Position numbers and translations under genes: made by a program. This document shows, piece by piece, positions 27,125 to 52,573 of a stretch of DNA of 64,000 nt. The notes below the pieces were generated by a model, which worked only from the letters and a program-made list of their open reading frames with translations, was not told where the DNA came from and searched no databases. This DNA comes from Escherichia coli 042 (GTDB taxonomy: Bacteria; Pseudomonadota; Gammaproteobacteria; Enterobacterales; Enterobacteriaceae), in the NCBI RefSeq assembly GCF_000027125.1, contig NC_017626.1; one strand, written 5' to 3'. Every line of letters begins with the position of its first letter. The stretch's first letter is position 1.

Positions 27125-27200
27125 GCCCGGATAGCTCAGTCGGTAGAGCAGGGGATTGAAAATCCCCGTGTCCTTGGTTCGATTCCGAGTCCGGGCACCA
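27125..27200 (+). tRNA. pheV: tRNA-Phe (anticodon GAA)
   Basis: GCCCGGATAGCTCAGTCGGTAGAGCAGGGGATTGAAAATCCCCGTGTCCTTGGTTCGATTCCGAGTCCGGGCACCA; 76 nt, CCA end, GAA anticodon in loop. Confidence 0.95.
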
Positions 27201-27397: not shown

Positions 27398-28663
27398 ATG
27401 GCACTGACTGACGCAAAAATCCGGGCAGCAAAGCCTACTGACAAGGCTTATAAACTCACTGACGGGGCTGGCATGTTCCTGCTGGTACATCCTAATGGTT
27501 CCCGTTACTGGCGTCTCCGTTATCGTATTCTGGGTAAGGAGAAGACTCTGGCACTTGGTGTGTATCCAGAAGTTTCTCTCTCCGAAGCTCGTACAAAACG
27601 GGATGAGGCCCGAAAACTGATTTCAGAGGGGATTGACCCTTGCGAACAGAAAAGAGTTAAAAAAGTAGTCCCTGATTTACAGCTCTCTTTTGAACATATT
27701 GCACGACGCTGGCATGCCAGTAATAAACAATGGGCACAATCACACAGCGATAAAGTACTCAAAAGCCTCGAGACACACGTTTTCCCCTTTATCGGCAACC
27801 GGGATATCACAACACTCAATACCCCGGACCTGCTTATCCCTGTTCGTGCTGCAGAAGCAAAACAAATTTATGAAATCGCCAGTCGTCTGCAGCAAAGAAT
27901 ATCTGCTGTAATGCGTTACGCCGTACAGTCTGGCATCATCAGATATAACCCGGCTCTGGATATGGCTGGTGCATTGACCACGGTAAAACGCCAGCATCGC
28001 CCCGCTCTGAATCTTTCACGCCTGCCTGAACTTCTGTCGCGTATTGACGGTTATAAAGGCCAGCCTGTCACCCGGCTTGCCGTTATGCTGAATTTACTGG
28101 TTTTTATTCGTTCCAGTGAACTCAGATATGCCCGCTGGTCTGAAATTGATATTGACAATGCCATGTGGACTATTCCAGCCGAACGCGAACCTCTGCCTGG
28201 CGTAAAATTCTCACACCGGGGCTCCAAGATGCGGACACCACATCTTGTGCCACTCAGTAAACAGGCTGTAGCCATACTGACAGAACTTCAGACATGGGCA
28301 GGTGAAAATGGTCTGATATTTACGGGTGCACATGACCCGCGTAAACCAATCAGTGAAAATACTGTAAATAAAGCCCTGAGGGTGATGGGGTATGACACAA
28401 CCCGGGATGTCTGTGGTCATGGGTTCCGGGCGATGGCATGTAGTGCGTTAATAGAATCAGGTTTGTGGTCCCGCGATGCTGTTGAACGTCAGATGAGCCA
28501 TCAGGAACGTAACGGTGTACGTGCTGCTTACATTCATAAAGCAGAACATCTGGAAGAACGCCGCTTGATGCTACAATGGTGGGCCGATTTTCTGGATGCA
28601 AACAGAGAAAGATTTATCAGTCCATTTGAATATGCAAAGATTAATAATCCATTAAAACAGTAA
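27398..28663 (+). CDS. P4-type tyrosine integrase (site-specific recombinase)
   Basis: 421-aa ORF starting 200 bp after tRNA-Phe; N-terminal MALTDAKIRAAKPTDKAYKLTDGAGMFLLVHPNGSRYWRLRYR and C-terminal HGFRAMACSA...RAAYIH catalytic region typical of P4-like integrases. Confidence 0.9.
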   Translation: MALTDAKIRAAKPTDKAYKLTDGAGMFLLVHPNGSRYWRLRYRILGKEKTLALGVYPEVSLSEARTKRDEARKLISEGIDPCEQKRVKKVVPDLQLSFEHIARRWHASNKQWAQSHSDKVLKSLETHVFPFIGNRDITTLNTPDLLIPVRAAEAKQIYEIASRLQQRISAVMRYAVQSGIIRYNPALDMAGALTTVKRQHRPALNLSRLPELLSRIDGYKGQPVTRLAVMLNLLVFIRSSELRYARWSEIDIDNAMWTIPAEREPLPGVKFSHRGSKMRTPHLVPLSKQAVAILTELQTWAGENGLIFTGAHDPRKPISENTVNKALRVMGYDTTRDVCGHGFRAMACSALIESGLWSRDAVERQMSHQERNGVRAAYIHKAEHLEERRLMLQWWADFLDANRERFISPFEYAKINNPLKQ

Positions 28664-28981
28664 TCATCCCGGGCAAATGCCCGGGAACTTACTCCATGAA
28701 TATTTTCTTTGTTAAAAAGACAAAATGGTATTAACTGATGTATTTACTGTTTACCTGATTGTTCCCTGGAGGAGGATTATCAGAATCTGCGGTTATTCAT
28801 TATTTATATTCAATGAAAAAGTAACCTCATAAAAAAACTCACTCACAGAGTGATGCGGGATAACTGACGTAAGGAATACTGCCGGGATTTGGTGGTCCCT
28901 TGTGCTGATATGAATACGGATTCTGTTTTATACAGAATACTTTTCAGTACAAGCAACTGTATTACAGTTTGCCATATATGA

Positions 28982-30481
28982 TTACCTGTGGTCCGGAAGA
29001 ATAAGCGGCTGCGGTTTCAGACTGTCTTCCTGTACATACCTCTCTCCGTTAAAAACCATAATGCGTTCATTATCTTCGTCTGTCAGTGGATTGAATGGCG
29101 GTATATTTTCGGTACGAATACCGGTCAGCCACTGAAAAATACCTGTGAAATGACGGGCACTGATTTTTCTGCTGAGGGACTGATGAGAGGTTATATCACT
29201 GGCGGTAATAATCAGGGGCACGCTGTAGCCTCCCTGCACATGACCATCATGATGAACAGGATTAGCACTGTCGCTGACCGACAGCCCATGGTCAGAAAAG
29301 TAAAGCATGGCGAAATGACGTGAGTGTCGGCGAAGGATACCATCAAGCTGACCAAGAAAGTTATCCAGTTTACTGATGCTGGCAAGATAACAGGCAATTT
29401 TTCGGGAATACTGCTCCAGGTAATTATTCTGCCAGGAGTGAAGCCGATCACACGGGTTCGGATGAGACCCCATCATGTGCAGGAAAATCACCTTCGGAGT
29501 GGATGTATCTGCCAGCGCACGTTCTGTTTCCTGTAACAACAACATGTCATCCGTTTTACGGGAAGCAAAGCTGCCTTTCTTGAGGAAAACAGTATGGTCC
29601 GCATCAGAAGCAATAACAGAGATGCGTGTGTCATGCTCTCCCAGTTTTCCCTGATTGGATATCCACCATGTGCTGTATCCTGCTTTTGCTGCCAGCGCCA
29701 CCACGTTGTTGCCGGAATCAGGGTTCTGCTCATAGTCATAAATCAGTGTCCGGCTCAGGGAAGGCACGGTGCTGGCTGCTGCCGATGTATAACCGTCAAT
29801 AAATAAACCGGGAGCCGTATTCAGCCATGGTGTGGTTGGCTCGGGATAACCATATACCGACATATAATCCCTGCGGACACTCTCACCAGTAACAATAACA
29901 ATCGTGTCATATAATGGTGCTCCCGGCAGGATTTTCCAGCTGTCAGCACCGTGCCGACTCAGTTGTTCATAACGCTGCATTTCACGCAATGTGTCAGTTG
30001 TCCCCACAACTGTTCCTTTAACCATCCGTAACGGCCAGCTGTTTACAGAGCATAATACGAATAACAACAGAGCCATCGCGTTACGTTGACCACGGTGGTG
30101 TGTCCGCCAGAAAATAACCATGAACACCAGAATCGCGGCACTGACCAGAAAATGATAAACAGGAATCATCCCGGTAAACTCCGCAGCCTCATCCGCCGTG
30201 GTCTGCAACAACGCGACAATAAAACTGTTGTTGATTTTTCCGTACGTCATACCGACAGGTGCATACAGTGCACAACAGAACAGAAATAACAGAGCTGTAA
30301 TGGATGTAAGGGTATTTCTGTGTGCAAGAATCAGAAGGAGAAACAGCAGCAACACATTCCCGGTGGCATTCTTCTCAGTGTATCCGCATGCGGCAGTGGT
30401 TATTACACACATGCCCGGGAAGAATAAAAACAATAAAATCCGGGATATATTGTCCGTATAAAACAGCTTTCTGATATTCAT
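28982..30481 (-). CDS. membrane phosphoethanolamine transferase / sulfatase-family protein (EptA/YhbX-like)
   Basis: 499 aa; N-terminal multi-TM region followed by alkaline-phosphatase-superfamily motifs (TGESVRRDY, HMMGSHP, SDHG). Confidence 0.6.
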   Translation of the reverse strand: MNIRKLFYTDNISRILLFLFFPGMCVITTAACGYTEKNATGNVLLLFLLLILAHRNTLTSITALLFLFCCALYAPVGMTYGKINNSFIVALLQTTADEAAEFTGMIPVYHFLVSAAILVFMVIFWRTHHRGQRNAMALLLFVLCSVNSWPLRMVKGTVVGTTDTLREMQRYEQLSRHGADSWKILPGAPLYDTIVIVTGESVRRDYMSVYGYPEPTTPWLNTAPGLFIDGYTSAAASTVPSLSRTLIYDYEQNPDSGNNVVALAAKAGYSTWWISNQGKLGEHDTRISVIASDADHTVFLKKGSFASRKTDDMLLLQETERALADTSTPKVIFLHMMGSHPNPCDRLHSWQNNYLEQYSRKIACYLASISKLDNFLGQLDGILRRHSRHFAMLYFSDHGLSVSDSANPVHHDGHVQGGYSVPLIITASDITSHQSLSRKISARHFTGIFQWLTGIRTENIPPFNPLTDEDNERIMVFNGERYVQEDSLKPQPLILPDHR

Positions 30482-30632
30482 CGGAGTATATCGACAACAT
30501 TATTGTGAAGAGAATAAAAATCAGAAGTCTCCTGTGAAACAGATAACAGACAACCCTGCAGTATAATTACTGCAGGGAGTCTTCGTTTAATTACAGAAGA
30601 TGGGTAATTATTATCTTTCAGGAGCAGTTTTG

Positions 30633-31373
30633 TCAGAAGTTATAAGTCACACCAAGCATGATGTCATGACTTTTAACATCAACTTCTGATTTATATTTAT
30701 CGCCCCACTCGTCCTTGTAACTCACACTGCTGTCACCTGCATCAAGATAGCGATAGCTGAGGTCCAGAGCGATATCCGGGGTTACGTCATAGCGGACACC
30801 CGCGCCAAAGCTCCATGCGAAGTTGTCAGCAGAGCCTGAACGTGACAACGATTCGCGACCACTGCTTCCGTACCCATAATCCCAGGTACTGATACCGGTT
30901 GTTTTCTGGTGAATTCTGGCGTAGCCAATCCCTGCAGATACCCATGGTGTGAATGCACTGTCATTCCGGAAGTCATAGTACGCATTCAGCATCAGTGTGT
31001 TGACTGACACCTCATTCTTCAGGTCATCACGCCAGTAACCGCCTGACCAGCTGTCTTTATCTACGTTATACTTCGAATCAGCTTTTCCACGAGCGTAAAA
31101 CTCCAGTTCCGTACGAACCGGAATACTGAACTGCGGGTAAAAATCATAACCGGCCGCGATACCGCCACTGAATACCGTATCATGGCCATCACCGCCTTTA
31201 TATTTTGATGTTTCCTCTCCATCACCCGACAGGAAACGCTGGTCTGCAAGTGACATAACAGAAGCACCTGCTTTACCGGTCACATAAAAGCCTGTTTTGC
31301 TCTCATCAGCCAGAGCCTGGGTCGAAAACATGCCTGCCATGGCAAGCGCTGAAACCGCAATAACCTTATTCAT
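30633..31373 (-). CDS. outer-membrane beta-barrel protein (possibly opacity/Tia-Hek-like adhesin family)
   Basis: Signal peptide MNKVIAVSALAMAGMFSTQALA, alternating aromatic/hydrophilic strands, C-terminal ...LGVTYNF beta-barrel signature; subfamily uncertain. Confidence 0.55.
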   Translation of the reverse strand: MNKVIAVSALAMAGMFSTQALADESKTGFYVTGKAGASVMSLADQRFLSGDGEETSKYKGGDGHDTVFSGGIAAGYDFYPQFSIPVRTELEFYARGKADSKYNVDKDSWSGGYWRDDLKNEVSVNTLMLNAYYDFRNDSAFTPWVSAGIGYARIHQKTTGISTWDYGYGSSGRESLSRSGSADNFAWSFGAGVRYDVTPDIALDLSYRYLDAGDSSVSYKDEWGDKYKSEVDVKSHDIMLGVTYNF

Positions 31374-31597
31374 TTCAATCATCTCCGCTATCACTTTCCC
31401 CGAACGATAAATGGGGTTGCTCATTCTAAAACCATGCAAAAGATAGGGTAAAAGGAATGTTTTCGATCGAATCGATCGATAAAATCGATCGTACCCGATA
31501 AAGTTTTCTTATCGTACCCATAAAAATGGTAAGGGCTGGTTTAAGAGGTAATCGCAGCGGCATGGAAGTATTAAGACCAAAACAGCACGAGATAAAG

Positions 31598-31781
31598 CGG
31601 CTGAACGTCAGATGAGCCACATGGAACGTAATTCATTAAGGGCGGCTTATATCCATAAAACAGAACACCTGGAATAGCGTCGGTTGATGCTACAGTGGTG
31701 GGGGGATTTTCTGGATACAAACTCGAAAGAAAATACCAGCCCCTTTGAGTATACGAAGATTAACAATCCATTAAAATATTA
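31598..31781 (+). pseudogene. integrase 3' end remnant (duplicated C-terminal fragment of P4-type integrase)
   Basis: Nucleotide stretch ctgaacgtcagatgagcca...ttgatgctacagtggtgg...attttctggata...aatccattaaaa is clearly homologous to 28481..28663 (end of the intact integrase) but carries an in-frame TAG; followed by a similar ccgggca-loop-tgcccgg hairpin. Confidence 0.7.
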
Positions 31782-32010
31782 AGCACTCCGGGCAATCTGC
31801 CCGGAGTGCTTTAGCTGGCATAACGGGCTACTGATCTCCTCTGGTTACAGATAACGACTTCAGCCCTCTGAAAGAGAAAAGCGGAAGCTCAGGAAGGTTG
31901 TGATTTGCTTTTAACCTTTTTAATTTAGAAGTATTATTTTGAGATTAATCCACTTCCCATCGTCATCCTTTTTGGTGTGCGTGAAAAGCTATTTTTAAGG
32001 TTACTGCCTC

Positions 32011-34320
32011 ATGGAGTTATGGATATTTATAGTAGCTATTTATTTGATTTATATTCTTTTTTTCAAAAAGAAGAAAACTAAGTCCGCGGGCTCTTATACT
32101 TCCGCTCCTGTGAAAGCACCACCTAAAGAATGGCTTGCTAACAACAAAAAAAATCAGTCTGTAATGCAAAACGAGGACAGCGAAGATGACAATCTGGCTA
32201 CGTTTACACTAAGTGGCGGGCGGAATGTCGAATACAGCATAACAGCCACTCAACGCCAGAATTTCTCAAAAACTACCGGTGCTTTGGCTCGTTGGATTTT
32301 TCCGGGAGAGATGATCACAGTCAGTGGGATAGAGGTTACCGGCGGTCACTTCTATCTTGGGCAGCGTATGAAACCTGCCGGGCATAACTCAGGCGGTTAT
32401 TATGATGGCAATAACGAGGCATCGCTAGTTGACGACACGCTTAAAATATACCCCACACCTTACATTTACGAAGATAGTTCATTAGGGTATTGGCCCAGTT
32501 TTTCCTCACTTTCACCTGAAGCTCGTGGTGCGTACCTGAGTTGGCTTGCCAGCGACAGATGCGACACTTCCTGCCCAATTGGTTACGTTTTCATTTATCT
32601 GTATGGTCTGGAAAGAAGGGCGCTTGTTGACAGCAGGGACAACAATATATCCGACGATGAGTTCTATTCTCTTTTCAAAGAGATCTGCCGTCTCAGATCG
32701 GTTTTCAATGAAAACCGATCTTTCCGGAATTACTCATCCCAGTTACTTGAAGCGATGTCCATTCTTCGTCCGAACGAAAATCTTGCAGCAGCTCTCAACG
32801 ATGATTCGGAGTTCAGCAATAGCATGCAGTTCAGGTTAATCCTGGCAAAGACTGTTGATACAGGAGCCCCGGTTCCAGCGGATCTGGCTCTGACGTGGGT
32901 GACAAACCATGCTGAATACTCATTACGAACCCCCGCCCGCCGCTGTGCGAAAGAATTTGCTGCACTATTTAAACGGCGTTACACCCTTAAATACGGTGAA
33001 GGGATGGTAGTGAAGCCGAATAAAGCGCGTCTGCGTTTAGATTACACGCCTGCAAGTCCCAGTTTGCGAGGTATTCGGCTTCCTGTTCCCGACTTGCCTG
33101 ATCCAGGTGCATTGAAAGGCCCTGTTCAGAAGCTTATGGCCATTGCCGATATATGCACAGGTGAACTGGATGCTTACAGTCGTTACCTTGGTAGAAAAGG
33201 TACTTCAGCAAATGATACCGCTGCAATTTTGTTGCTGCCTTCAGAAATCGTTAACGAAAGCGCAGAAAAAATATTAAGTACATTCAAACACTGGGCTGAT
33301 GACGCAATCCGCAGTAAGGGTGGGATAGTTTCAGTTGCTGACTACTGGTCACATATGAATGCCACCTGTCCGGCGAAGATCAATAAAAAAGAGGCCGACT
33401 TAATGCAAGCCTTTGCACAGAAAATGGGATACTGTCTGGCTCCTGACCCCTATCACCACCACGTAAAGGCAGATGTCGATGGTGTACTTGTTTTATTCCC
33501 TGCTGGTGAAAGAGGACGTTTCTCACCTTCTCCTGAATTTATCACAGCTGTATTGACGCTCCGATTAGGTTCGGTAGTCGCCTTGATTGACAATTCTCTC
33601 GATCAAGCCGAACAGAAAGTGCTTGAGAATGCCATCAACAACAATGCCAGCTTCAGCGATGATGAAAAGCGCTCTCTGCACGCATATTTAACGTGGCAGC
33701 TTCATACTCCGGCGAATATGACGGGAATGAAAAGCCGGATTGAATTACTCGGTGCAGCGGAAAAATCAGCTGTGGGTAAGGTTATCGTTAGTGTCGCTTG
33801 CTCTGACGGCAGAATTACGCCTGCCGAAATCAAACAGCTTGAGAAGATTTATACAAGCCTGGGACTGGATCCCTCATCCGTATCAAGCAATATCCATCAG
33901 CATTCCGCAACTGAAACTGCTCTCGTTTCATCTGTACCAGCTAATCAGTCGACGGCAGGGTTTACGCTGGATGCCAACGTACTTGCCCGCCACGAATCTG
34001 CCACTGATGATGTTCGTAAATTACTGAACTCAATTTTCACTGAAGAAGAACCAGAACAACCAGAAAGCGCTCCAGCCTCATTAACCGGGGAAGGGGGACT
34101 TGACTCCGCTCATAGCCAACTTTATCGCAGGTTGCTGGAGAAAGAACAATGGTCCAGAAAAGAGGCGACAGAGTTGTGTAGTAACTGGAACCTGATGCTC
34201 GGCGGTGCGCTTGAGGTGATTAACGATTGGTCCTATGCGGTGGTTGATGCACCAGTGCTGGAAGATGCTGATGATCACATTTGGATTGACCTGGAAATAG
34301 CCAAAGAATTAGAGGGTTAG
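32011..34320 (+). CDS. TerB-domain membrane-anchored protein (Shango SngA-like)
   Basis: 769 aa; N-terminal TM helix (MELWIFIVAIYLIYILFF), region with GYVFIYLYGLERR and a later ...VSVACSDGRITPAEIKQLEKIYTSLGLD block that I recognise as TerB-N / TerB-like; first gene of a tightly packed three-gene operon. Confidence 0.6.
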   Translation: MELWIFIVAIYLIYILFFKKKKTKSAGSYTSAPVKAPPKEWLANNKKNQSVMQNEDSEDDNLATFTLSGGRNVEYSITATQRQNFSKTTGALARWIFPGEMITVSGIEVTGGHFYLGQRMKPAGHNSGGYYDGNNEASLVDDTLKIYPTPYIYEDSSLGYWPSFSSLSPEARGAYLSWLASDRCDTSCPIGYVFIYLYGLERRALVDSRDNNISDDEFYSLFKEICRLRSVFNENRSFRNYSSQLLEAMSILRPNENLAAALNDDSEFSNSMQFRLILAKTVDTGAPVPADLALTWVTNHAEYSLRTPARRCAKEFAALFKRRYTLKYGEGMVVKPNKARLRLDYTPASPSLRGIRLPVPDLPDPGALKGPVQKLMAIADICTGELDAYSRYLGRKGTSANDTAAILLLPSEIVNESAEKILSTFKHWADDAIRSKGGIVSVADYWSHMNATCPAKINKKEADLMQAFAQKMGYCLAPDPYHHHVKADVDGVLVLFPAGERGRFSPSPEFITAVLTLRLGSVVALIDNSLDQAEQKVLENAINNNASFSDDEKRSLHAYLTWQLHTPANMTGMKSRIELLGAAEKSAVGKVIVSVACSDGRITPAEIKQLEKIYTSLGLDPSSVSSNIHQHSATETALVSSVPANQSTAGFTLDANVLARHESATDDVRKLLNSIFTEEEPEQPESAPASLTGEGGLDSAHSQLYRRLLEKEQWSRKEATELCSNWNLMLGGALEVINDWSYAVVDAPVLEDADDHIWIDLEIAKELEG

Positions 34321-34323
34321 TGA

Positions 34324-35640
34324 ATGTCTGTAACACGTATAAGAGTGAAAGAGCGCGACGCTATCATTCAGTCACTTAAGTCGGGAGTAACGCCAAGAAT
34401 AGGTATTCAGCATATCCAGGTTGGCCGCGTGAATGAGATAACCGCCCTCCATCAGGATATTGAACGGATTGCTGATGGCGGGGCAAGCTTCAGACTTATC
34501 ATTGGTGAGTACGGTTCCGGGAAAACATTCTTTTTAAGTGTTGTACGGTCTATTGCGTTAGAGAAGAAGCTGGTCACGGTCAGTGCAGACCTTTCTCCCG
34601 ACAGACGTATCCACTCATCGGGAGGTCAGGCTCGTAATCTCTACTCAGAGCTTATGAAAAATATGTCCACCAGAAACAAACCAGATGGCAATGCATTACT
34701 TAGCGTTGTGGAAAGGTTTGTTACTGAGGCAAGGAAGGAAGCTGATGCGAACGGCTCCCTGGTCTCATCCGTTATTCATAAACGCCTTGCTGCTTTGTCA
34801 GATATGGTGGGAGGATATGACTTTGCGAAGGTCATTGACGCATTCTGGCGCGGGCATGAGCAGGATAACGAAACCTTAAAATCCAATGCTATTCGCTGGT
34901 TGCGGGGCGAGTACACCACAAAAACTGATGCCCGTAATGATCTTGACGTCCGAACGATTATCTCAGACGCCTCGTTCTATGATTCTTTGAAGTTGATGAG
35001 CCTTTTTGTCCGTCAGGCAGGCTATGCCGGACTTTTAGTTAGCCTCGACGAGATGGTGAACCTCTTCAAGTTGAATAATACGCAAGCGAGAACGGCCAAC
35101 TACGAACAAATTTTGCGGATTCTGAATGACTGCCTGCAAGGCTCCGCCGAAAATATTGGTTTTATCCTCGGGGGGACGCCAGAATTTCTTTTCGATCCAC
35201 GTAAGGGGCTCTACAGCTATGAAGCGCTCCAGTCGCGTCTGGCAGAAAACCGATTCGCACAGAAAGCTGGCGTGATTGACTACTCGTCCCCCACGCTGCA
35301 TCTTGCCAGCCTCACTCCTGAGGAACTGTATATTTTACTGAAAAACCTTCGTCATGTTTATGCTGGTGGAGATCCCGTAAATTATCTGGTGCCAGATGAT
35401 GCTCTGACCGGGTTTCTGCATCACTGCAGCAAAACCATCGGAGATGCTTACTTTCGAACTCCCCGCAATACCATAAAAGGTTTTCTGGATATGCTGGCTG
35501 TGCTGGAACAAAACAGAACGATGAACTGGCAACCCCTCATTGAGGGGGTGGCGATTGAAGAAGACAAGCTCAGCGATATGGATGATGCCATTGTGGAGGA
35601 AAGTGATGACGATGATGGCCTGGCGAATTTCAGATTATGA
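34324..35640 (+). CDS. P-loop ATPase (Shango SngB-like)
   Basis: 438 aa; Walker A GEYGSGKTF, Walker B LLVSLDEM; starts 4 nt after upstream stop and overlaps downstream start. Confidence 0.65.
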   Translation: MSVTRIRVKERDAIIQSLKSGVTPRIGIQHIQVGRVNEITALHQDIERIADGGASFRLIIGEYGSGKTFFLSVVRSIALEKKLVTVSADLSPDRRIHSSGGQARNLYSELMKNMSTRNKPDGNALLSVVERFVTEARKEADANGSLVSSVIHKRLAALSDMVGGYDFAKVIDAFWRGHEQDNETLKSNAIRWLRGEYTTKTDARNDLDVRTIISDASFYDSLKLMSLFVRQAGYAGLLVSLDEMVNLFKLNNTQARTANYEQILRILNDCLQGSAENIGFILGGTPEFLFDPRKGLYSYEALQSRLAENRFAQKAGVIDYSSPTLHLASLTPEELYILLKNLRHVYAGGDPVNYLVPDDALTGFLHHCSKTIGDAYFRTPRNTIKGFLDMLAVLEQNRTMNWQPLIEGVAIEEDKLSDMDDAIVEESDDDDGLANFRL

Positions 35641-37835
35641 GTAGTGCCTACAATAGTCTTGATCCCCGTGTCCGTAAGTGGGTTTATAAGCAGGGCTGGT
35701 CATCCTTAAGGCCCTTGCAGGAAAGCTCTATTCCGGCAATTTTAGCCCGTGATCGTGATGTACTAATTAGTGCAGGTACAGCTGCGGGTAAAACAGAGGC
35801 TTTCTTTCTTCCTGCCTGTTCAGCGATTGCAGATCTCACTGGTGGATTTGGCATTATCTATATCAGTCCATTGAAGGCATTAATTAACGATCAACACCGT
35901 CGTCTTGAGAGTCTTGGTGAAGCCCTGGAAATGCAAGTGACGCCCTGGCACGGGGATGTACCACAAAGCAAAAAGAAGAAAGCACGGACAACCCCTTCTG
36001 GCATCTTACTTATCACACCTGAATCACTTGAGTCTTTGCTCATAAACTCATTGGGTTGGCTCAAACAGGCGTTTTCTTCTGTGGCATACATTGTTATTGA
36101 TGAGTTCCATGCTTTTATTGGCTCAGAGCGTGGTATACAGCTGCTTTCTCTGCTTAACAGAATTGACCATGTGCTGGGACGCCAGTTGAATCCAGTTCCC
36201 CGTGTCGCGTTGAGTGCCACACTGGGAGAGCTGGAAAAAGTACCAGAACTATTGCGCCCGGATAAGAGATTACCTTGTGAAACGGTAACAGACAGTAATA
36301 GCAAAGCCACAATACAGGTTCAGGTTAAAGGTTATCTTGAGCGGGTGCCCGAAAAAGGAAAAGAGCTCCAGAGCTCTGCTGAACAGCTCGTCTGCGCGGA
36401 TATTTTCAGGCTCTGCCGTGGCGATTCCCACCTAGTCTTTGCTAACAGTCGAAAGCGTACTGAAAGCATAGCGGCAACACTGAGCGACATGTGTGAAGCA
36501 AATGTCGTTCCTAATGAATTCTTTCCTCATCATGGTTCCCTTGCAAGGGAGTTGCGTGAGGCGCTTGAAGCCCGACTGCAGAAAGGGAATTTGCCCACAA
36601 CCGCTGTTTGTACAATGACTCTGGAGCTGGGTATTGATATTGGTAAGGTGCAGTCTGTCATACAAGTGACACCTCCGCATTCTGTTTCCAGTCTGCGTCA
36701 ACGCATGGGACGTTCAGGGCGGCGCGATTCCCCATCGGTGCTGAGAATGTTAATTACTGAACCTGAACTTACCGCAACCAGCAGCATTGTGGATCATTTA
36801 CGGCTGCAGTTGGTTCAGGCGATGGCAATGATCAGGTTGATGATCTCTAAGCGCTGGTTCGAGCCTGCAGATATCCGGCAGAAACATTACTCCACACTAC
36901 TACACCAGATCTTGGCTATTACTGCGCAATGGGGAGGTGTTCGTGCCGATCAGCTCTGGTCACAACTTTGCCAGACAGGTCCGTTCCGGAATGTGGATAT
37001 AAATGACTTCAAAAGTCTGCTTAAACATATGGGGACATGTGGCCTGCTCACTCAACTAACCAGCGGTGAAATAGTTGTCGGGGCTGAGGGGGAGAAACTG
37101 ACTAATCACTACACGTTTTATACCGTATTCAATACACCTGAGGAGTTTCGCATTGTAACGGGAAACCGAACTCTTGGCACAGTGCCTGTAGACTCCCCAC
37201 TTTTGCCGGAGCAGCACATCATCTTCGGCGGACGGCGCTGGAAAGTGACAGAGATCGAGGTTGAAAAAAAGGTTATCTATGTTGAGACGACTAAAGGCGG
37301 TCAGCCGCCACTATTCAGTGGTAGCGGGATGTCTGTTCATGATGTTGTTCGCCAGGAAATGCTCACTATCTACAGGGAAAATGATTACCGTATCGCGGTA
37401 GGCAACAAGAGAGTCGATTATGCTGATGCCGCAGCCAGAAGCCTCTTCGCGGAAGGAAGTGACAACTTCCAACGCTACAATCTACAAAATGACTGTTTTA
37501 TTGCCAGTGGTCAGAACTGCTACGTGATCCCGTGGATGGGGGATAAAATTGTCAATACAATTACGTCCCTGCTTATACGTTGTGGCTTTAAAGCCAGTTC
37601 ATTTGCAGGTGTGATAGAGGTAGAGGACTCAGGCGTTGCCTCTGTCCAGCGTGCACTTAAGAAAATGCTATTGTCGGGGCTACCTTCAGAGTTTGAGCTT
37701 GCTGCAGTTGTTCCCGACAAGTATCTGGATAAATATGACGAGTATTTACCAGAGACTTTGCTTGCTAAAGGGTATGGGGCACAGGCGTATGATATAGAAG
37801 GAACGTGCATCTGGCTGCAGAAACACCTTCAGTAG
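35637..37835 (+). CDS. DEAD/DEAH-box (Lhr-like SF2) helicase (Shango SngC-like)
   Basis: 732 aa; motif I AGTAAGKTEAF, motif II VIDEFH, motif III SAT, motif VI MGRSGRR; ATGA start/stop overlap with upstream ATPase. Confidence 0.7.
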   Translation: MSSAYNSLDPRVRKWVYKQGWSSLRPLQESSIPAILARDRDVLISAGTAAGKTEAFFLPACSAIADLTGGFGIIYISPLKALINDQHRRLESLGEALEMQVTPWHGDVPQSKKKKARTTPSGILLITPESLESLLINSLGWLKQAFSSVAYIVIDEFHAFIGSERGIQLLSLLNRIDHVLGRQLNPVPRVALSATLGELEKVPELLRPDKRLPCETVTDSNSKATIQVQVKGYLERVPEKGKELQSSAEQLVCADIFRLCRGDSHLVFANSRKRTESIAATLSDMCEANVVPNEFFPHHGSLARELREALEARLQKGNLPTTAVCTMTLELGIDIGKVQSVIQVTPPHSVSSLRQRMGRSGRRDSPSVLRMLITEPELTATSSIVDHLRLQLVQAMAMIRLMISKRWFEPADIRQKHYSTLLHQILAITAQWGGVRADQLWSQLCQTGPFRNVDINDFKSLLKHMGTCGLLTQLTSGEIVVGAEGEKLTNHYTFYTVFNTPEEFRIVTGNRTLGTVPVDSPLLPEQHIIFGGRRWKVTEIEVEKKVIYVETTKGGQPPLFSGSGMSVHDVVRQEMLTIYRENDYRIAVGNKRVDYADAAARSLFAEGSDNFQRYNLQNDCFIASGQNCYVIPWMGDKIVNTITSLLIRCGFKASSFAGVIEVEDSGVASVQRALKKMLLSGLPSEFELAAVVPDKYLDKYDEYLPETLLAKGYGAQAYDIEGTCIWLQKHLQ

Positions 37836-38935: not shown

Positions 38936-39244
38936 TCAACAGACCGGTGTACCTTTTCTGAATACCTCCCCGGACGGACTGGCAATCCCCATTCGCCTCA
39001 GCGTGGCATCTGCAGCTTTCGCCACTTCGCTGATATCCAGCTTTTCAGGTAGCGGCGGGGACGATATCTGCGCCAGGCAATAATTCCTGCGCAACAACAA
39101 CCACTCCCGTTGTGCTTCTGTACATTCAACATTTCCCATAACAAAAAGCCAGCGGGCGGAAGCTCTGCGCCAGCAACCCGCAGCCTCCAGCTTCTGTGCA
39201 ACCATGTCTTCCACGACTTCCGGGGTACTCTTTTTCCTGCTCAA
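38936..39244 (-). CDS. hypothetical protein (third gene of IbrAB-like operon)
   Basis: 102-aa ORF 39 nt downstream of ParB-like gene, same strand. Confidence 0.35.
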   Translation of the reverse strand: MSRKKSTPEVVEDMVAQKLEAAGCWRRASARWLFVMGNVECTEAQREWLLLRRNYCLAQISSPPLPEKLDISEVAKAADATLRRMGIASPSGEVFRKGTPVC

Positions 39245-39283
39245 AACATTAACTCACTGAAATAATATACATATATGACGGTC

Positions 39284-39922
39284 TCAGCGAACCGTCCATG
39301 CCGGACTGAAATCCTCTTCCAGAAACAGCTCCGTCAGCCCGCTAATCTGTTTCAACCTGAGAACTTCATCCTGGTCCATACCCAGCTCCGTACCAATACG
39401 TTCATCCGTCCAGCCCAGCCGCGACAGGTCCCTGACAATATCAGACATTGAAGTTATCTGGTGCTTCCCCCTGGCCCGGTTATGTCTAATGGTTGCAGCA
39501 ATACGTGAGGCCTGTCCCTTTCTTTCCGGATTAATACAGGTCACTGGCAACCAGCCCTTCAGGCGTTTTCCCGTACCTGCTTCCCTGCCCAGTAATTGAC
39601 GATGAAAACCATCCACGACCAGATAATGCTCCTTCTCTTCCGAGACAACCACAGGCTGCGTGAACCCATCCTGCTCCAGTGAATGTTTCAGCAGTTTCTT
39701 CTCACCCGGCGCCATGACATTGGGGTTATAATCGTTGGCCACCACCTCATCTGCTTTCACCCACAGCACACAGTCCACAGGCTCCTGTGCAAATGGACTG
39801 ACCTCATGAAGCACCCTGCGCAGATGATTCAGGGCCTGTATGGCCTCTTCTTCTGGTCGTTCCTGGCTGAAGTACTGACGAATCATGTTGCTCAGTATCT
39901 CCGGTGTCACAGAATCCCCCAT
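39284..39922 (-). CDS. ibrB: ParB/Srx-like nuclease-domain protein (IbrB-like)
   Basis: 212 aa; ParB N-terminal-type motif region VVVDGFHRQLLGREAG...IRHNRARGKHQ; start overlaps upstream gene by 16 nt. Confidence 0.6.
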   Translation of the reverse strand: MGDSVTPEILSNMIRQYFSQERPEEEAIQALNHLRRVLHEVSPFAQEPVDCVLWVKADEVVANDYNPNVMAPGEKKLLKHSLEQDGFTQPVVVSEEKEHYLVVDGFHRQLLGREAGTGKRLKGWLPVTCINPERKGQASRIAATIRHNRARGKHQITSMSDIVRDLSRLGWTDERIGTELGMDQDEVLRLKQISGLTELFLEEDFSPAWTVR

Positions 39923-41139
39923 TCCTTCCTCCTTTCTTTCATACGCTGCAGATAACGTTCATAGTGCCGGGGTTTGTTCGGACTGAAGGAGAGGGTACGG
40001 CACCAGAAATCATTCTTTATGAGAGTCTTACAGATACGTCGCCAGGACGGAATATCCCGGCTCCCCAAGTCATTCTCCTGTTCATCCGGGATGTCATCCG
40101 GGAAGCCCCGCGTCTGATACCAGCGCAGATAGACAGCTATCTTGTTGCGGTAATGTTCTGCCGTTCTTTCCGGCATCACATCCAGCAGAAACATCGCATA
40201 GCTGCGCCAGGTATGATGGGCTGGTTTTGATATGCGCTTACGCAGGGCAAAATAAGCCCCGCTTTCATTGGCATAAAGTGCCCCGCTGGCAGCCCCTGAC
40301 ACCCGCTCACACATCCTGGCCCAGGTTTCCGGCTCCAGAACATGGTAAAGCCACAGTCCCTTACGTTGTTCAGGACCAAAAGGTTCACAGACACGCATGT
40401 TGCGTAACGGTACGCCGGCACGGTACATCAGGTCATACAGGGGATTGTAGATGGCACGGGTTCTGGTGTGATATATCCAGATATCACGAGTTTTCCAGTC
40501 ATACAGCGGATACATGGTGTAGTAAAACCCTTCAGGCGATGCCGTGGTCCAGGGCTTATCATCGGCGTATCTCAGTTTGCGCTGGGATACCAGTCCCATG
40601 AACCGGTTAAGGGACTCATCCGCACGGACACCGGTCAGTACTGCCACACCACATTTATTGTCTGCAAACCAGGAAGAAAATGCCGGAACAAATTCTTCAA
40701 ACGTCATGGCATACCGGTAAAAGGGAAAATACGCCATATCTGTAATGGCCCCCTCCGGTGGCTGGCGAACCCACTTCACACCAGACTCCCAGCATATCCA
40801 CTCCGGCTGAAACTGAGAAACACCGTTTACCGTGGTCAGGGGAAGTGCCACCCAGTAAAAGGTTTCCGTCACATCATGGTACATTTCCCGCATCTTCTGA
40901 ATATGTTCAATGGTGCACTGGTACTGAGCCTCCCAGTCAATGAACAGTACAGAGAAACGACGTTTTTTCCTGCGGGCCACATCAGCCAAAAGATGGAAAA
41001 GCACGGTGGAATCTTTACCACCGGAAAAAGAGAGACAAACTGATGGAAATGTTTCAAAAATCCACTCAATACGAGCAATTGCTGCACGCAGAACATTCTC
41101 TCCAGTAAGGACTTTCTCCGTTAAAAAATTATCATTCAT
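39907..41139 (-). CDS. ibrA: PAPS-reductase-like (PP-loop ATP pyrophosphatase) protein with C-terminal extension (IbrA-like)
   Basis: 410 aa; PP-loop SFSGGKDSTVLFHL near N-terminus, long C-terminal domain; gene pair architecture matches IbrA/IbrB (YbdN/YbdM-like) as I recall it. Confidence 0.65.
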   Translation of the reverse strand: MNDNFLTEKVLTGENVLRAAIARIEWIFETFPSVCLSFSGGKDSTVLFHLLADVARRKKRRFSVLFIDWEAQYQCTIEHIQKMREMYHDVTETFYWVALPLTTVNGVSQFQPEWICWESGVKWVRQPPEGAITDMAYFPFYRYAMTFEEFVPAFSSWFADNKCGVAVLTGVRADESLNRFMGLVSQRKLRYADDKPWTTASPEGFYYTMYPLYDWKTRDIWIYHTRTRAIYNPLYDLMYRAGVPLRNMRVCEPFGPEQRKGLWLYHVLEPETWARMCERVSGAASGALYANESGAYFALRKRISKPAHHTWRSYAMFLLDVMPERTAEHYRNKIAVYLRWYQTRGFPDDIPDEQENDLGSRDIPSWRRICKTLIKNDFWCRTLSFSPNKPRHYERYLQRMKERRKEWGIL

Positions 41140-42040: not shown

Positions 42041-42964
42041 TTATATAAAACAGTAAAAGTGAATCAGCTTAACAAATGCATCTTTCATTTGTTTTTGCTG
42101 CTGCTCGCTTCCATTCTGGTTGCGGACTTCACCATAGTGACACAACTGTTCTTCTGCCAGGATATGCCGGTTAAAAGCCTGCATGATGCCAGACACCTCC
42201 GTTTTCAGCTCACTGACCGTCATGTATTTTCCCCGCTGTTCATCCGGACGGTTCAGGCGCTCAGCCAACAGCTGTAAGCGGGTCATGCCTTCGTTCCAGC
42301 CAGTCATCGCCTCTTCCGGGAGCGCACGACTCCTTGCACTCTTCTGCCAGTTATCCACCATTTCCTGAACACGAGGATTGTCGGGGAAAAGTACCATCAG
42401 TTGCTGCAGCAATTGCACACTGCGTTGCAGGTTGTATGCCGGGGGGAATTCTGTCAGTCGCGTTATCTGCTGACCGGAAAGGGTTATCCACTCTGACGCA
42501 TGATTTAACAGTGTTCTGCTGAGCTGCATCATCTGGTCTGCTGAAAGCACATCCGGTGAGGGTGTCAGCAGCGCCCTGAGTTGCTGCTCCGCCGGTGATG
42601 GCTGTGTCAGAAACTGCCATCCCGGAATGGCCACGCAGACCGCCAGCAATGCCGTACAGACACCTGTAACAAACGTTTTCAGAAACGTGAGCGGGGATTT
42701 TTGAAGGAAGAGTGTGGGCTCTGTTTTTGTTTCAGAAACAACATACACCAGACGGGAGTGCGGCAGGGTCTGATGTTCCTGCACATCCGGAGCTTCAAGC
42801 CTGAGTGCCTGCGCCAGTAGCGTTACCGGAGACGATACTTCCCCCTGCACAGGCTGGTTCTCCAGGCGGGTGATATATCCCTTCACCATGGCTTCCGGTA
42901 AAGCCACTTTACTGCTCTGTTTAAGTTCGTGCCAAGCCTGCGTATTTTCATGGAAGGAGATCAC
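42041..42964 (-). CDS. hypothetical membrane protein (possible C-terminal portion of an ImpA/VasL-like protein)
   Basis: 307 aa with central TM helix (LTFLKTFVTGVCTALLAVCVAIPGW); start overlaps the upstream ImpA-N-like ORF by 17 nt in another frame. Confidence 0.4.
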   Translation of the reverse strand: MISFHENTQAWHELKQSSKVALPEAMVKGYITRLENQPVQGEVSSPVTLLAQALRLEAPDVQEHQTLPHSRLVYVVSETKTEPTLFLQKSPLTFLKTFVTGVCTALLAVCVAIPGWQFLTQPSPAEQQLRALLTPSPDVLSADQMMQLSRTLLNHASEWITLSGQQITRLTEFPPAYNLQRSVQLLQQLMVLFPDNPRVQEMVDNWQKSARSRALPEEAMTGWNEGMTRLQLLAERLNRPDEQRGKYMTVSELKTEVSGIMQAFNRHILAEEQLCHYGEVRNQNGSEQQQKQMKDAFVKLIHFYCFI

Positions 42965-43388
42965 TCAGTGTCTTCAGGAATGTTTCGGTCTGATACAGCA
43001 GGGGCAGGTTGTCACGGTTATCCGGAGGCATGGCCCGGAGCGTTTTTTGCAGACGGTTGAACAGACCGGTAATAATTTCCAGCCGGGAGTGTGTATTCAG
43101 CGGCCACATCACTGACCAGTGATGCCGGGTCAGCGCAGCAATCAGAGCCAGCCCTTCATTCAGACCACTTAACCCTGTTGTATGCATCCGGGCAATGGTG
43201 TACCAGGATGCCGTCTGTAATTCCACGCCATTGTGTTCATACAGACGCAGGCAGAGCGTTTCCACGTAACGCCAGTCCACATCAGGGCGTGCCGGGTGGG
43301 TCAGTTTGCTGATTTCATCGCGCAGGGCAGCATAATCCGGTAATGACCGGGGGTCACCACCGGTTTTCAGTTTCACTTCAGAAGTCAT
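42948..43388 (-). CDS. ImpA-N-domain-like protein (TssA/VasL N-terminal-like)
   Basis: 146 aa; GGDPRSLPDYAALRDEISKL...DVDWRYVETLCLRLY...ASWYTIA...GLSGLNEGLALIAAL...W pattern resembles the ImpA N-terminal domain of T6SS TssA/VasL proteins (from memory). Confidence 0.4.
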   Translation of the reverse strand: MTSEVKLKTGGDPRSLPDYAALRDEISKLTHPARPDVDWRYVETLCLRLYEHNGVELQTASWYTIARMHTTGLSGLNEGLALIAALTRHHWSVMWPLNTHSRLEIITGLFNRLQKTLRAMPPDNRDNLPLLYQTETFLKTLSDLLP

Positions 43389-43781: not shown

Positions 43782-45569
<1,788 letters not shown>

Positions 45570-50476: not shown

Positions 50477-52573
50477 TTAAATAGAAATAATCCTGTCAAC
50501 AGTTCTCAACGTAGTTTCTCTGTGTGCAATAATCACCCGGGTGATATTCATTTTTTTTATGGCAGCATTCACGAAACGTTCACTTTCTGTATCAAGAGAA
50601 CTTGTAGCCTCATCCATAAATAATATTCCAGGTTTCCGGTATAAAGCTCGGGCAATGAATATACGCTGTTTTTGACCGCCGGAAAGACCTTCCCCCAGTT
50701 CACCTATTAACGTTTCATACCCCATTGGCATTTTCATTATCACATCATGAATATGACTTGCTCTGGCACATTCTGTCATCCATTCGTCGTCTGTTTCTTC
50801 TGCAAACCCACAGATATTTTCACGAATTGATCCTGAAAATAGCCGGTCGTCCTGCATAACACAGGCTATCATACGGTGATAATTATTTATTCCAAGTTGA
50901 CGTATATCCGTGCCATTAACCAGTACTTTTCCACTATCTGGTTCAAACAGTCCACATAATACTTTCATTAATGTGGTTTTTCCGGCACCGGAGGCACCAG
51001 TTATAGCCACACTTTCTCCCGGAGCCACAGACAAATTCAGACCACTGAATACCTGTGCTGACTGGCTGTCATACCGGTAGCTTAAATCAGTGGTTTCCAG
51101 TGAAACCGGGCTCATGTCAGCAACGATTTCAATTTCCGGTTTCTTTTCTTCCTTTTCATGTAGTGCAATATCTGCAATGCGCTCATTATGCAGACTCATT
51201 ATTCTCAGTTGAAGAAGAAAACTGGTCAGCGAAGCAACCCGATCCGAAAACTGCCCACGAAAAGAACCAAATGCCACAAACATCCCTATTGTCATCTGAT
51301 TATCGATCACAAGGCTTGCACCCAGCCATAAAATCGCCACCTGATCACAGGCGGCAACAAAAGTATTTATCCCCCCGAAGAGCAAATCCATCTTGGTTAA
51401 CTTAATACCTGAATTGATCGCATCTATTTTCAGGTTAAGCCAGTGTGTTCCCCGGATCCCAGCCATACCTTGGATTTTTACCGTGGCAATACCATACAGG
51501 CTTTCCATAAAATAGGAGCTGGCCCGGGCCCCCCTGACAAGAGTTTCTTCCGATATTTGCCGGTAATAGCCGTATGTCACCAGACGAATAAGAACGTAAA
51601 CCATGGTAAAACCGAGCACTATCCAGGTAAGATATCCTCCATATAACAGCATCATCACAAAAACACCCACAACCATAATACTGTCCATGATTGCCCCAAC
51701 CACACAGGTGGTAAAGGTGGCCCTCAAAGTGTCAAGGGAGCCAAAACGCGACTGGATATCACCTAATTTACGGCGTTCAAAAAACGCCAGCGGCAGTCTG
51801 AGAAGATGGTTAAACAGACCCGACTGCCACTGTATATTGATGAGCGTGCTCATAACCAGTGAGGACCATGCACGCAGCATACTCACCGCGGCCCTGAGCA
51901 ATATAAAGAACATCAGGCCAGCAGAAATAAGCGTCAGCAGCCCTCTGTCCCCCGCCGGAATCGCATGATCCATAACCAGCTGAGTCCCCACCGGCATTAC
52001 CAGATTGATTGCTTCAATTACAACTGACAGACAGAAAATTTTCGCCAGTGTTCTTTTAATACCGTAAATACTGTTAATCAGTGAACGGAGACTTATGCGG
52101 ATCTGCTGGGTTTCCGCCAGGAATTCACTTCCAGGCCAGACCTCAAGTGCAATGCCCGTAAAATACCGGCTCATTTCCTCCCGACCGAGATATCTTCTGC
52201 CTCTGGCCGGATCATGCAGTACATAACGGTTACGCTTTACGCTGACCAGCACGACAAAGTGACTGAAATCCCAGTGGAGAATACACGGCATTTTGAGGGC
52301 ACCAAGTTCATCCAGCTCCAGTGAAAGAGCCCGGGTGACCATCCCCAGCTGCTCCGCTATTCCATTGATTCCTGCAAGGTTTGCTCCACGGGCCGAGAGA
52401 TTAAACTTCCGGCGAAGAGATATCAGGTCAATATTCTTACCAAAATGACCGCATATCATTGCCAGGCAGGCCAGTCCACATTCAGCGGTCTCCGTCTGAT
52501 GAATAACCGGAACACGACGTCGCCAGCGCATATCAAGCTGATTTATAATTTGTCTGAAACTCCCGTTAGTCAT
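50477..52573 (-). CDS. mchF: microcin ABC exporter with N-terminal C39 peptidase domain (CvaB homolog)
   Basis: Track ORF 50477..52591; from [42 protein letters not shown] closely matches CvaB/MchF; Walker [10 protein letters not shown], signature LSGGQ. Confidence 0.85.

Follow-up and report, generated by a model that had tools for sequence, protein, structure and literature searches.

The head of the pheV island of Escherichia coli 042 carries hra1 and an OpgE/yjgX-like transferase gene as a two-gene cassette

Organization of the island head

The window, i.e., the whole stretch of DNA that was analysed, comprises 64,000 nucleotides of the E. coli 042 genome (NC_017626.1) and contains the tRNA-Phe gene pheV (27125..27200, plus strand; detected by ARAGORN and by the Rfam tRNA model with 68 bits), which is the integration site of a genomic island. 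A direct-repeat search showed that the 3' 23 nt of pheV (27178-27200) constitute an attachment-type repeat; a second copy of this repeat, which would delimit the island, was not found inside the window. Downstream of pheV lies an intact gene for a P4-type tyrosine integrase of 421 aa (27398..28663, plus strand), assigned by PGAP and by the Pfam domains Arm-DNA-bind_3, Phage_int_M and Phage_integrase. Two open reading frames, both on the minus strand, come directly after the tRNA-Phe gene and the integrase, and an earlier note on this DNA rightly regarded them as the first cargo genes behind the integrase; they occupy 28982-30481 (a membrane transferase) and 30633-31373 (an outer membrane protein, OMP). 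In a genome that is 99.9% identical, RefSeq/PGAP places both genes at exactly these coordinates under the names 'phosphoethanolamine transferase' and 'outer membrane protein', and each of the two exact protein sequences is present in at least 1000 contigs in public data. Based on their dN/dS versus other alleles (0.17-0.23), both are real genes under purifying selection. A PADLOC search for a defence-system role gave no match for either gene.

A further P4-type integrase gene, distinct from the intact one, survives only as its 3' part at 31597..31811 (plus strand), recognized by alignment, by the PGAP label 'integrase, internal stop, missing N-terminus' and by its terminator hairpin, which the terminator scan placed at 31781-31811. 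Interrupted by an internal stop, this remnant aligns with the 3' end of the intact integrase gene at a mean column identity of 82%; the int-transferase-hra1 module ends here on its right-hand side.

Within the 151-nt gap that separates the two minus-strand genes, the terminator scan detected a conserved GC-rich hairpin (30554..30577, minus strand) with CCCTGCAG and CTGCAGGG as the two arms around its loop and a U-rich tract behind it. The predicted RNA fold of the intergenic region has an energy of -42.2 kcal/mol (z=-5.1), and in the cassettes of UTI89, LAA and tia the stem is retained while the loop varies; judged by its sequence, the hairpin looks like a terminator or an attenuator. Apart from the tRNA, a search with Rfam revealed no known RNA elements in the intergenic and upstream regions, and the RfaH ops element (GGCGGTAG) was absent from 28000-33000.

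A comparable layout has been described in module I of the LAA island of LEE-negative STEC, in which the order is int-sisA-YhbX fragment-'sulfatase'-hes, with the 'sulfatase' gene adjoining hes (PMC5539235, Table S3). Both islands have pheV and a P4-type integrase, followed on the opposite strand by the transferase and an Hra-family gene, the LAA transferase and OMP being 92% and 89% identical, respectively, to those of the window. They differ in that LAA carries hes and the window the hra1 allele, in that sisA is missing between integrase and transferase in the window, and in the remainder of the island, where Shango adjoins in the window and ato genes adjoin in LAA.

Hra1 and its upstream region

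The OMP gene (30633..31373, minus strand; 246 aa) is hra1, encoding heat-resistant agglutinin 1, as established by sequence identity, a structure model and Pfam. The longest open reading frame reaches position 31439 and the start annotated in enteroaggregative E. coli (EAEC) 042 is at 31424, which gives a 263-aa form that is residue for residue CBG36001.1, "Heat resistant agglutinin 1" of EAEC 042. The gene equals in length the gene cloned from 042 (801-bp product including sites), and the only point of divergence is the start chosen by PGAP (MNKV...), which lies 17 codons further in and has a better Shine-Dalgarno spacing. In addition, the hra1 cloning primer (PMC5539235, Table S1) matches the sequence of the window exactly. 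The earlier note had left the OMP between a Tia/Hek/Hra-type adhesin and an OmpW-like protein; the first option is right, since the protein is Hra1, which has been characterised in EAEC as an accessory colonisation factor and is here placed at the head of the pheV island.

The identities of Hra1 to Hes (89%), to the UTI89 allele (91%) and to the protein named Tia by PGAP (66%) mirror the published figures for the family (PMC5539235). The architecture is likewise that of the Hra family. A signal peptide of 22 aa (MNKVIAVSALAMAGMFSTQALA) precedes a mature protein of 224 aa and 24.8 kDa, in agreement with the 25-kDa class proposed previously, which ends in ...TYNF and hence has a terminal Phe. 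The protein matches Pfam OMP_b-brl (E=1e-23), and its structure model (pLDDT 87) contains 8 long strands forming a beta-barrel with fold matches to OmpA-TM, NspA, Ail and OmpX; the best PDB sequence match is Opa60. Two other assignments were considered and discarded. HMM classification did not indicate OmpW, since the scores for Pfam OmpW (22.7 bits, cut-off 24) and NCBIfam OmpW (20.4 bits, cut-off 287) stayed under their cut-offs. The Hes allele of the LAA island was rejected given the 89% identity to Hes and the absence of the hes_det1 and LAA1_rev primer sequences from the window.

Haemagglutination, autoaggregation and adherence are reported for Hra1, to which the 042 copy is identical, in work cited by PMC5539235 and PMC8286834. 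Hra1 would be exported by the Sec pathway and inserted in the outer membrane as an 8-stranded barrel of the Opa/OmpA type, whose long surface loops may mediate self-association and binding to the host.

A consensus scan and an alignment of upstream regions predicted a promoter-like element for hra1 (-35 TTTACC, -10 TAGAAT; 31423..31452, minus strand), and its -10 region recurs in the cassettes with tia, hes and the Salmonella homologue. Directly upstream of the -35 lies a cluster of three GATC sites, 5'-GATCGATTTTATCGATCGATTCGATC-3' on the coding strand (31465..31490, minus strand), in which the GATCs, at 31487, 31474 and 31465, are 13 and 9 bp apart. The identical arrangement precedes tia and the Salmonella homologue; the cluster matches 8 of the 10 positions of the OxyR half-site consensus and has 13 nt in common with the OxyR/Dam region of agn43. 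It is a candidate Dam-sensitive regulatory site, and its conservation upstream of both hra1 and tia provides a testable hypothesis for phase variation in this adhesin family: if true, the adhesins would be phase-variable through Dam methylation. A report of Dam-methylation phase variation for hra1 or tia was not found in the literature that was searched. A species scan for the GATC motif returned three matches only and did not broaden the case, as two of them look like E. coli-type contamination and the remaining one, in Yokenella, precedes an unrelated gene for a small secreted protein. The triple-GATC site (GATCGATTTTRTCGATCGWTWCGATC), which is conserved from E. coli to the Salmonella homologue, is similar to the OxyR/Dam sites found at agn43 and gtr.

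The transferase, its catalytic residues and its probable acceptor

The gene at 28982..30481 (minus strand) encodes an inner-membrane enzyme of the phosphoethanolamine (pEtN) transferase family (499 aa, 56 kDa), as indicated by Pfam, paralogue scores, an AlphaFold model and a fold search. The description given in the earlier note, a sulfatase-superfamily membrane transferase with an HMMGSHP motif, is accurate, as the protein matches Pfam Sulfatase (126 bits, cut-off 25; E=2e-36) and the motif occupies residues 335-341 (29459-29479), including H335 and H340. Two domains were delimited, a helical membrane domain at the N-terminus (residues ~10-177) and a periplasmic domain with the alkaline-phosphatase fold (~190-499). 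In the AlphaFold model (pLDDT 91.3) the former comprises helices 10-31, 39-53, 57-80, 108-127 and 135-145 plus bridging helices, with pLDDT >90, and the hydropathy segments agree with this multi-helix domain, although Pfam EptA_B_N scored 20.9 bits, under its cut-off of 22.3. The best fold matches were EcEptC (Foldseek E=1.6e-19, TMt 0.75), full-length MCR-1 and NmEptA, the alignment to the latter two extending over 545 columns.

The Thr nucleophile and Zn ligands of MCR-1 are, in the numbering of published structures, with which the aligned MCR-1 fragment agrees, E246, T285, H395, D465 and H466. HMMER alignment to MCR-1 and EcEptC and MAFFT column mapping located the catalytic codons of the transferase at 29288..29884 (minus strand): E200 (29882-29884), the nucleophile T238 (29768-29770), the two histidines of the HMMGSHP motif and D397-H398 (29288-29293), with H410/H411 slightly beyond this span (29249-29254). 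E200, T238, H340, D397 and H398, and also H335, align with the Thr nucleophile and Zn ligands of the family, and these six residues are invariant in an alignment of 53 homologous sequences that includes all five K-12 paralogues (EptA, EptB, EptC, YhbX and OpgE). The catalytic Thr and metal ligands, the absence of which had been named in the earlier note as evidence against its reading, are all intact. The transferase is an intact member of the pEtN transferase family, for which pEtN transfer is predicted; biochemical data for this protein were not found in the literature that was searched. The metal site formed by E200, D397 and H398 together with H340 and H410/411 is intact; by analogy with the enzyme family, the nucleophile T238 would take up pEtN from phosphatidylethanolamine, and the bound pEtN would be passed on to an envelope acceptor.

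As to the nature of this acceptor, the previous proposal was that of an EptA/YhbX-like enzyme able to alter LPS charge. In such a reading pEtN would be placed on lipid A or core and make the surface less negative, the enzyme and the OMP acting as a surface-remodelling pair. Family and architecture do match those of EptA, MCR-1 and EptC, with which the transferase has fold and catalytic residues in common, the best NCBIfam and PDB sequence matches are CptA/EptC, a heptose-phosphate (heptose-I-phosphate) pEtN transferase, and some homologues with 52-57% identity bear the name 'lipid A phosphoethanolamine transferase'. These names, however, are automatic annotations, and the identity to EptC/CptA, EptA and MCR-1 amounts to 20-25% in the catalytic domain only. 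No curated NCBIfam model reached its cut-off: the EptA, EptB and CptA models gave 41-111 bits (cut-offs 404-900), of which the EptA models gave 41-62 bits (cut-offs 561-660) and the EptC/CptA models 111 and 89 bits (cut-offs 404 and 900), and the MCR models did not exceed 31 bits (cut-offs 1075-1250). The position of K333 in MCR-1 is occupied by Gly in the transferase, according to MAFFT column mapping. Among the K-12 paralogues EptA is the most distant (46 bits), EptC scores 93 and YhbX 107 bits, and OpgE is the closest and the reciprocal best match (237/235 bits), any other paralogue scoring at most 122. Orthology to EptA, MCR, EptB or EptC was ruled out by the curated thresholds together with the paralogue scores. 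An LPS enzyme is therefore unlikely on these scores, and the functional expectation for the neighbour of Hra1 has to be corrected, as a change in lipid A charge or a polymyxin phenotype is without support. It may be mentioned that an enzyme of that type would imply tolerance to cationic peptides or polymyxin.

OpgE (YbiP) is 32% identical to the transferase over ~450 aa, with all the catalytic residues matching. Both have an N-terminal membrane domain plus a periplasmic domain, and they have the motif variants LHxMGSHPxxCDR and YFSDHGL in common. They differ in that the transferase is island-borne, accessory and 28 aa shorter, and opgE of K-12 forms a single-gene unit that converges on ompX. 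Promiscuity is known for EptC-type enzymes, and at 32% identity homology alone cannot assign the acceptor. OpgE adds phosphoethanolamine to osmoregulated periplasmic glucans and not to lipid A (PMC3818809). Because this nearest characterised relative modifies periplasmic glucans, a periplasmic or envelope glycan is, by analogy, the more likely acceptor rather than lipid A.

Linkage of hra1 and the transferase gene

About one fourth of the complete E. coli genomes have the hra-transferase cassette. The order OMP, hairpin, transferase is fixed in 1305 of the 1314 E. coli genomes with an OMP of the Hra1/Hek/Hes/Tia type, and it is the same with Hek-like, Hes and Tia alleles; hra, hek, hes and tia of E. 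coli thus nearly always come in a fixed unit together with an intact gene for an OpgE-like transferase. Salmonella contains a homologous OMP-transferase pair (57% and 53% identity) in which dS is saturated. Conversely, the neighbouring transferase is absent in the Hra2-like clade, and pairing was not observed for distant relatives, i.e., transferase homologues with up to 52% or OMP homologues with up to 66% identity. As an island cassette, the hra1-transferase pair is common and had been catalogued before; it is real but ordinary. Our preferred reading, which we hold to be probable, is that of a two-gene island cassette at the pheV island head composed of Hra1 and an OpgE/yjgX-like transferase, the genes of which move as a unit and most likely act independently.

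The yjgX pseudogene of K-12 (leuX island, next to intB) shows 91% nucleotide identity to the transferase gene over ~1.2 kb and is likewise placed downstream of a P4-type integrase. About 104 codons are missing from its start, IS2 has inserted next to it and no hra gene accompanies it, in contrast to the intact copy of the window; from its sequence, it is a truncated orthologue of the transferase. Copies truncated at the 5' end or disrupted by IS elements are frequent, as in yjgX of K-12 and BL21 and in many other genomes, and large clusters of forms of 370-445 aa exist among the database entries. Since the transferase is often truncated in other strains, its function is dispensable, and these copies could even denote a decaying passenger gene that no longer has a function and merely accompanies hra1 and the integrase. 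Such a passenger is highly improbable for the window copy, given that its reading frame is full length with every catalytic residue present, that dN/dS between alleles is 0.17-0.19 at dS ~0.22-0.24, and that 1448 E. coli genomes encode a near-full-length transferase (at least 80% of its length).

The near-perfect linkage between Hra-family and transferase genes, kept even in Salmonella, counts against independent action, and functional coupling could account for it, in line with the functional pair implied in the earlier note. The transferase would then add pEtN to Hra-family proteins or to a glycan that they need, a role with precedents in PptA, which modifies Neisseria pilin, and in EptC, which modifies Campylobacter FlgG. 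The conserved gene order and intergenic hairpin and the persistence of the Salmonella pair at saturated dS agree with such a unit. Against it, the adhesion and aggregation phenotypes of the Hra family arise when these genes are cloned alone in K-12-type hosts, as shown for Hes in HB101 (PMC5539235), in a background where yjgX is truncated. The Hra2-like and more distant OMP relatives do without an adjacent transferase and the more distant transferase relatives without an adjacent OMP, a terminator-like hairpin separates the two genes, and a short unit that moves in one piece suffices for lasting adjacency. A functional unit of this kind is accordingly quite unlikely. It is doubtful that hra1 and tia are switched ON and OFF by Dam through the triple-GATC cluster or that the pairing reflects a functional link, for instance by way of pEtN on the adhesin or a glycan it needs, and not mere co-transfer.

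The cassette of Hra1 and the OpgE/yjgX-like transferase also bears on association studies, in which a 'putative opgE' has been listed near pap islands (PMC8946752): the cassette hitch-hikes with the papGII islands that appear in GWAS.

Identity of the gene pair behind the pheV integrase

The two genes that follow the P4-type integrase at pheV are, as judged from sequence, a known adhesin and a catalogued phosphoethanolamine (pEtN) transferase of the OpgE clade, and there is little new in the pair. Further interest is possibly limited to the acceptor of this common island transferase, the near-absolute linkage of the cassette and a candidate Dam switch. The window belongs to the E. coli chromosome and runs through speC, yqgA, the tRNA-Phe gene pheV (27125-27200) and an intact P4-type integrase (27398-28663) into a genomic island. 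Both ORFs proposed in an earlier note are present on the minus strand, encoding the transferase (28982-30481, 499 aa) and an outer membrane protein (OMP; 30633-31373, 246 aa). Several complete E. coli genomes share the surrounding 5 kb at 99.9% identity, and in them PGAP annotates a "phosphoethanolamine transferase" and an "outer membrane protein" at coordinates as in the window; the two exact protein sequences are abundant in public data and both genes are under purifying selection (dN/dS 0.17-0.23).

The OMP subfamily, left open in the earlier note between Tia/Hek/Hra and OmpW-like proteins, is settled as Hra1, a known adhesin: the 263-aa product from the upstream ATG (31424) has exactly the sequence of CBG36001.1, "Heat resistant agglutinin 1", and an OmpW identity was rejected as OmpW models score under threshold. 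The hra1 cloning primer AGCAACCCCATTTATCGTT, designed by Montero et al. on EAEC 042 (PMC5539235), matches exactly at 31421-31403, the gene length agrees with their 801-bp product, and the hes-specific primer det1 has no match anywhere in the window. Pairwise identities to Hes (89%), the UTI89 allele (91%) and a PGAP-named Tia (66%) reproduce the family matrix published in PMC5539235. The longer 263-aa form is probably annotated from too far upstream; GGAG lies nine nt ahead of the PGAP start (MNKV), which results in a proper signal peptide of typical structure (MNKVIAVSALAMAGMFSTQALA, cleaved before DESK), leaving a mature protein of 24.8 kDa. The AlphaFold model (pLDDT 87) contains eight long strands and matches the small 8-stranded barrels OmpA-TM, NspA, Ail and OmpX in fold, Opa60 being the best PDB match in sequence.

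With Pfam models the transferase matches Sulfatase (126 bits) and falls slightly short of the EptA_B_N cut-off. No curated NCBIfam threshold is reached, the best model being CptA (111 bits vs a cut-off of 404), with EptA models at 41-62 bits (cut-offs 561-660) and MCR models at no more than 31 bits (cut-offs 1075-1250). When the protein was aligned by HMMER to EcEptC and MCR-1, and by MAFFT to the five paralogues of K-12 (NC_000913.3), its residues E200, T238, H335, H340, D397 and H398 fell on MCR-1 E246, T285, H390, H395, D465 and H466, positions at which all 53 sequences of a further alignment agree. The MCR-1 numbering follows the published structures and agrees with the residues in the aligned MCR-1 fragment. 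The HMMGSHP motif reported earlier lies at residues 335-341. The catalytic Thr and the metal ligands, whose absence had been named as evidence against the earlier proposal, are all in place, so the proposal stands on this point, and the protein is predicted to be a competent member of the pEtN-transferase family. Its AlphaFold model is confident (pLDDT 91.3, pTM 0.87) and combines an N-terminal helical membrane domain with an alpha/beta periplasmic domain; in structure comparison it comes closest to the periplasmic domain of EcEptC, full-length MCR-1 and NmEptA.

Paralogue, acceptor and decay of the transferase

Among the K-12 paralogues OpgE is the reciprocal best match of the transferase (237/235 bits, 32% identity over ~450 aa), followed by YhbX (107 bits), EptC (93), EptB (56) and EptA (46); in sequence the enzyme is not EptA-like. 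A change in LPS charge, also suggested in the earlier note, finds no support, the closest paralogue being a glucan enzyme; OpgE transfers pEtN to osmoregulated periplasmic glucans (PMC3818809). The best guess for the acceptor is a periplasmic or envelope glycan, lipid A being possible but unsupported. A literature search for a biochemical study of this transferase found none. The gene has been listed under other names, as "putative opgE" genes adjoining integrases and pap operons in a bloodstream-infection GWAS (PMC8946752), and as a "sulfatase" beside hes in Table S3 of the paper on the LAA pathogenicity island (PMC5539235).

The K-12 pseudogene yjgX (leuX island, adjoining intB) is a 5'-truncated orthologue of the transferase with 91% nucleotide identity, lacking the first ~104 codons in both K-12 and BL21; as in the window, the K-12 leuX island presents an integrase and then the transferase. 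Across E. coli genomes the gene is very often truncated or IS-disrupted, insertions of IS2, IS3 or IS1414 are present and shortened forms of 370-445 aa make up large clusters, and despite this the intact copies are under purifying selection. The housekeeping opgE of K-12 adjoins, in convergent orientation, ompX, which encodes an 8-stranded beta-barrel OMP (K-12 850450-852597); this second small-barrel/OpgE-type neighbourhood may be a coincidence.

Linkage and edges of the cassette

An OMP gene followed 174-181 bp on by a transferase gene of the same direction (499-500 aa) was found in UTI89 (Hek-like allele, beside papGIII), O104:H21 (hes, in LAA) and AR_0089 (tia, beside papGII). Homology of these cassettes to the window starts a few bases from the transferase stop codon and gives out 13-290 bp before the OMP gene begins. 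Identity is 92-99% for the transferases vs 63-91% for the OMPs and, between the window and the tia cassette, dS reaches 1.16 in the OMP gene vs 0.23 in the transferase gene, an unequal divergence that marks the cassette as a mosaic produced by recombination between the two genes. In a survey of 5426 complete genomes, with matches covering at least 80% of the query, the OMP gene was present in 1314, the two-gene query in one place in 1305 and the transferase in 1448. A Salmonella contig retains both genes, the OMP being 53% and the transferase 57% identical, and the linkage ends at this distance; at the loci examined, OMPs of the Hra2-like clade and those still further removed lacked the transferase neighbour, and transferase homologues of 52% identity or less had no Hra-type OMP neighbour.

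Between the genes a GC hairpin followed by a U-rich tail is conserved, which suggests that hra1 is transcribed largely as a unit of its own. Since Hes works in HB101 from a clone of its gene alone (PMC5539235) and a truncated yjgX is all that K-12-type strains have, co-inheritance is favoured over functional dependence as the probable basis of the pairing.

Beyond hra1 lies the 3' end of another P4-type integrase gene, distinct from the first (~31597-31782, plus strand; PGAP and alignment), with its own terminator hairpin (together 31597-31811). This remnant, which has an internal stop and matches the intact integrase at a mean column identity of 82%, sits between hra1 and the Shango anti-phage genes, and thus the int-transferase-hra1 block has the look of a head module that was acquired on its own and joined to an older island with a truncated integrase, evidence of two islands stacked or recombined at pheV.

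Directly beside the cassette, PADLOC detected a complete three-gene Shango system (32011-37835, plus strand), consisting of SngA (TerB_N/TerB/TerB_C, 769 aa, E 9e-100), SngB (BrxC/D-type ATPase, 438 aa, E 4e-186) and SngC (DEAD/DEAH helicase, 732 aa, E 1e-277). Further on are genes for a PerC-family regulator, an IbrB-like protein and a PAPS-reductase/DUF3440 (IbrA-like) protein, then type VI secretion gene fragments (VasL, ImpA N-terminal domain), at 38936-41139 and 42041-43388 on the minus strand, and a NERD/UvrD-type helicase-nuclease (43782-45569). A C39-peptidase ABC exporter with an HlyD-type adaptor (50477-53840, minus strand) and an enterochelin-esterase-like gene (58530-59804, plus strand) lie in a low-GC stretch (0.33-0.41) further along the island; together they look like a cluster for export and maturation of a microcin of the siderophore-microcin type.

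A triple-GATC element upstream of hra1

The hra1 promoter is predicted at 31452-31447 (-35) and 31428-31423 (-10) on the minus strand, and directly upstream of it is the element 5'-GATCGATTTTATCGATCGATTCGATC-3' (31465-31490), with three GATC sites in GATCGATTTTRTCGATCGWTWCGATC at spacings of 13 and 9 bp. The arrangement recurs with identical spacing in front of a tia allele and of the Salmonella Hra-like gene, amid flanking DNA that otherwise cannot be aligned; the hes allele keeps one GATC, and the upstream region of the UTI89 allele is unrelated. Of the 10 specified positions in the consensus of an OxyR half-site, the first 15 nt match 8, and 13 nt (ATTTTATCGATCG) are common to the element and the K-12 agn43 OxyR/Dam region; in the gtr architecture, GATC pairs 13 bp apart lie within OxyR half-sites (PMC2909390). 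Based on this resemblance, the element is hypothesized to be a candidate epigenetic (Dam) phase-variation switch for hra1. The argument is drawn from the conserved arrangement and not from GATC density, as three GATCs within 60 bp are also seen by chance in other parts of the window. A literature search linking Hra1, Hek or Tia to Dam or OxyR returned no paper.

In Yokenella regensburgei an exact copy of the motif (contig positions 4779-4804) is located ~134 nt upstream of the gene for an unrelated 154-aa signal-peptide protein, in the setting of an integrative element (DUF932, RadC), and thus the motif may be a regulatory module that can move and is not specific to hra. The E. coli tia-type promoter motif was also found on a "Bacteroidetes MAG" contig, most likely Enterobacteriaceae contamination of a public assembly since a Tia-like OMP is encoded on it too, and on a 454-bp "Mesorhizobium" contig, for which contamination is suspected from its small size and low coverage alone.
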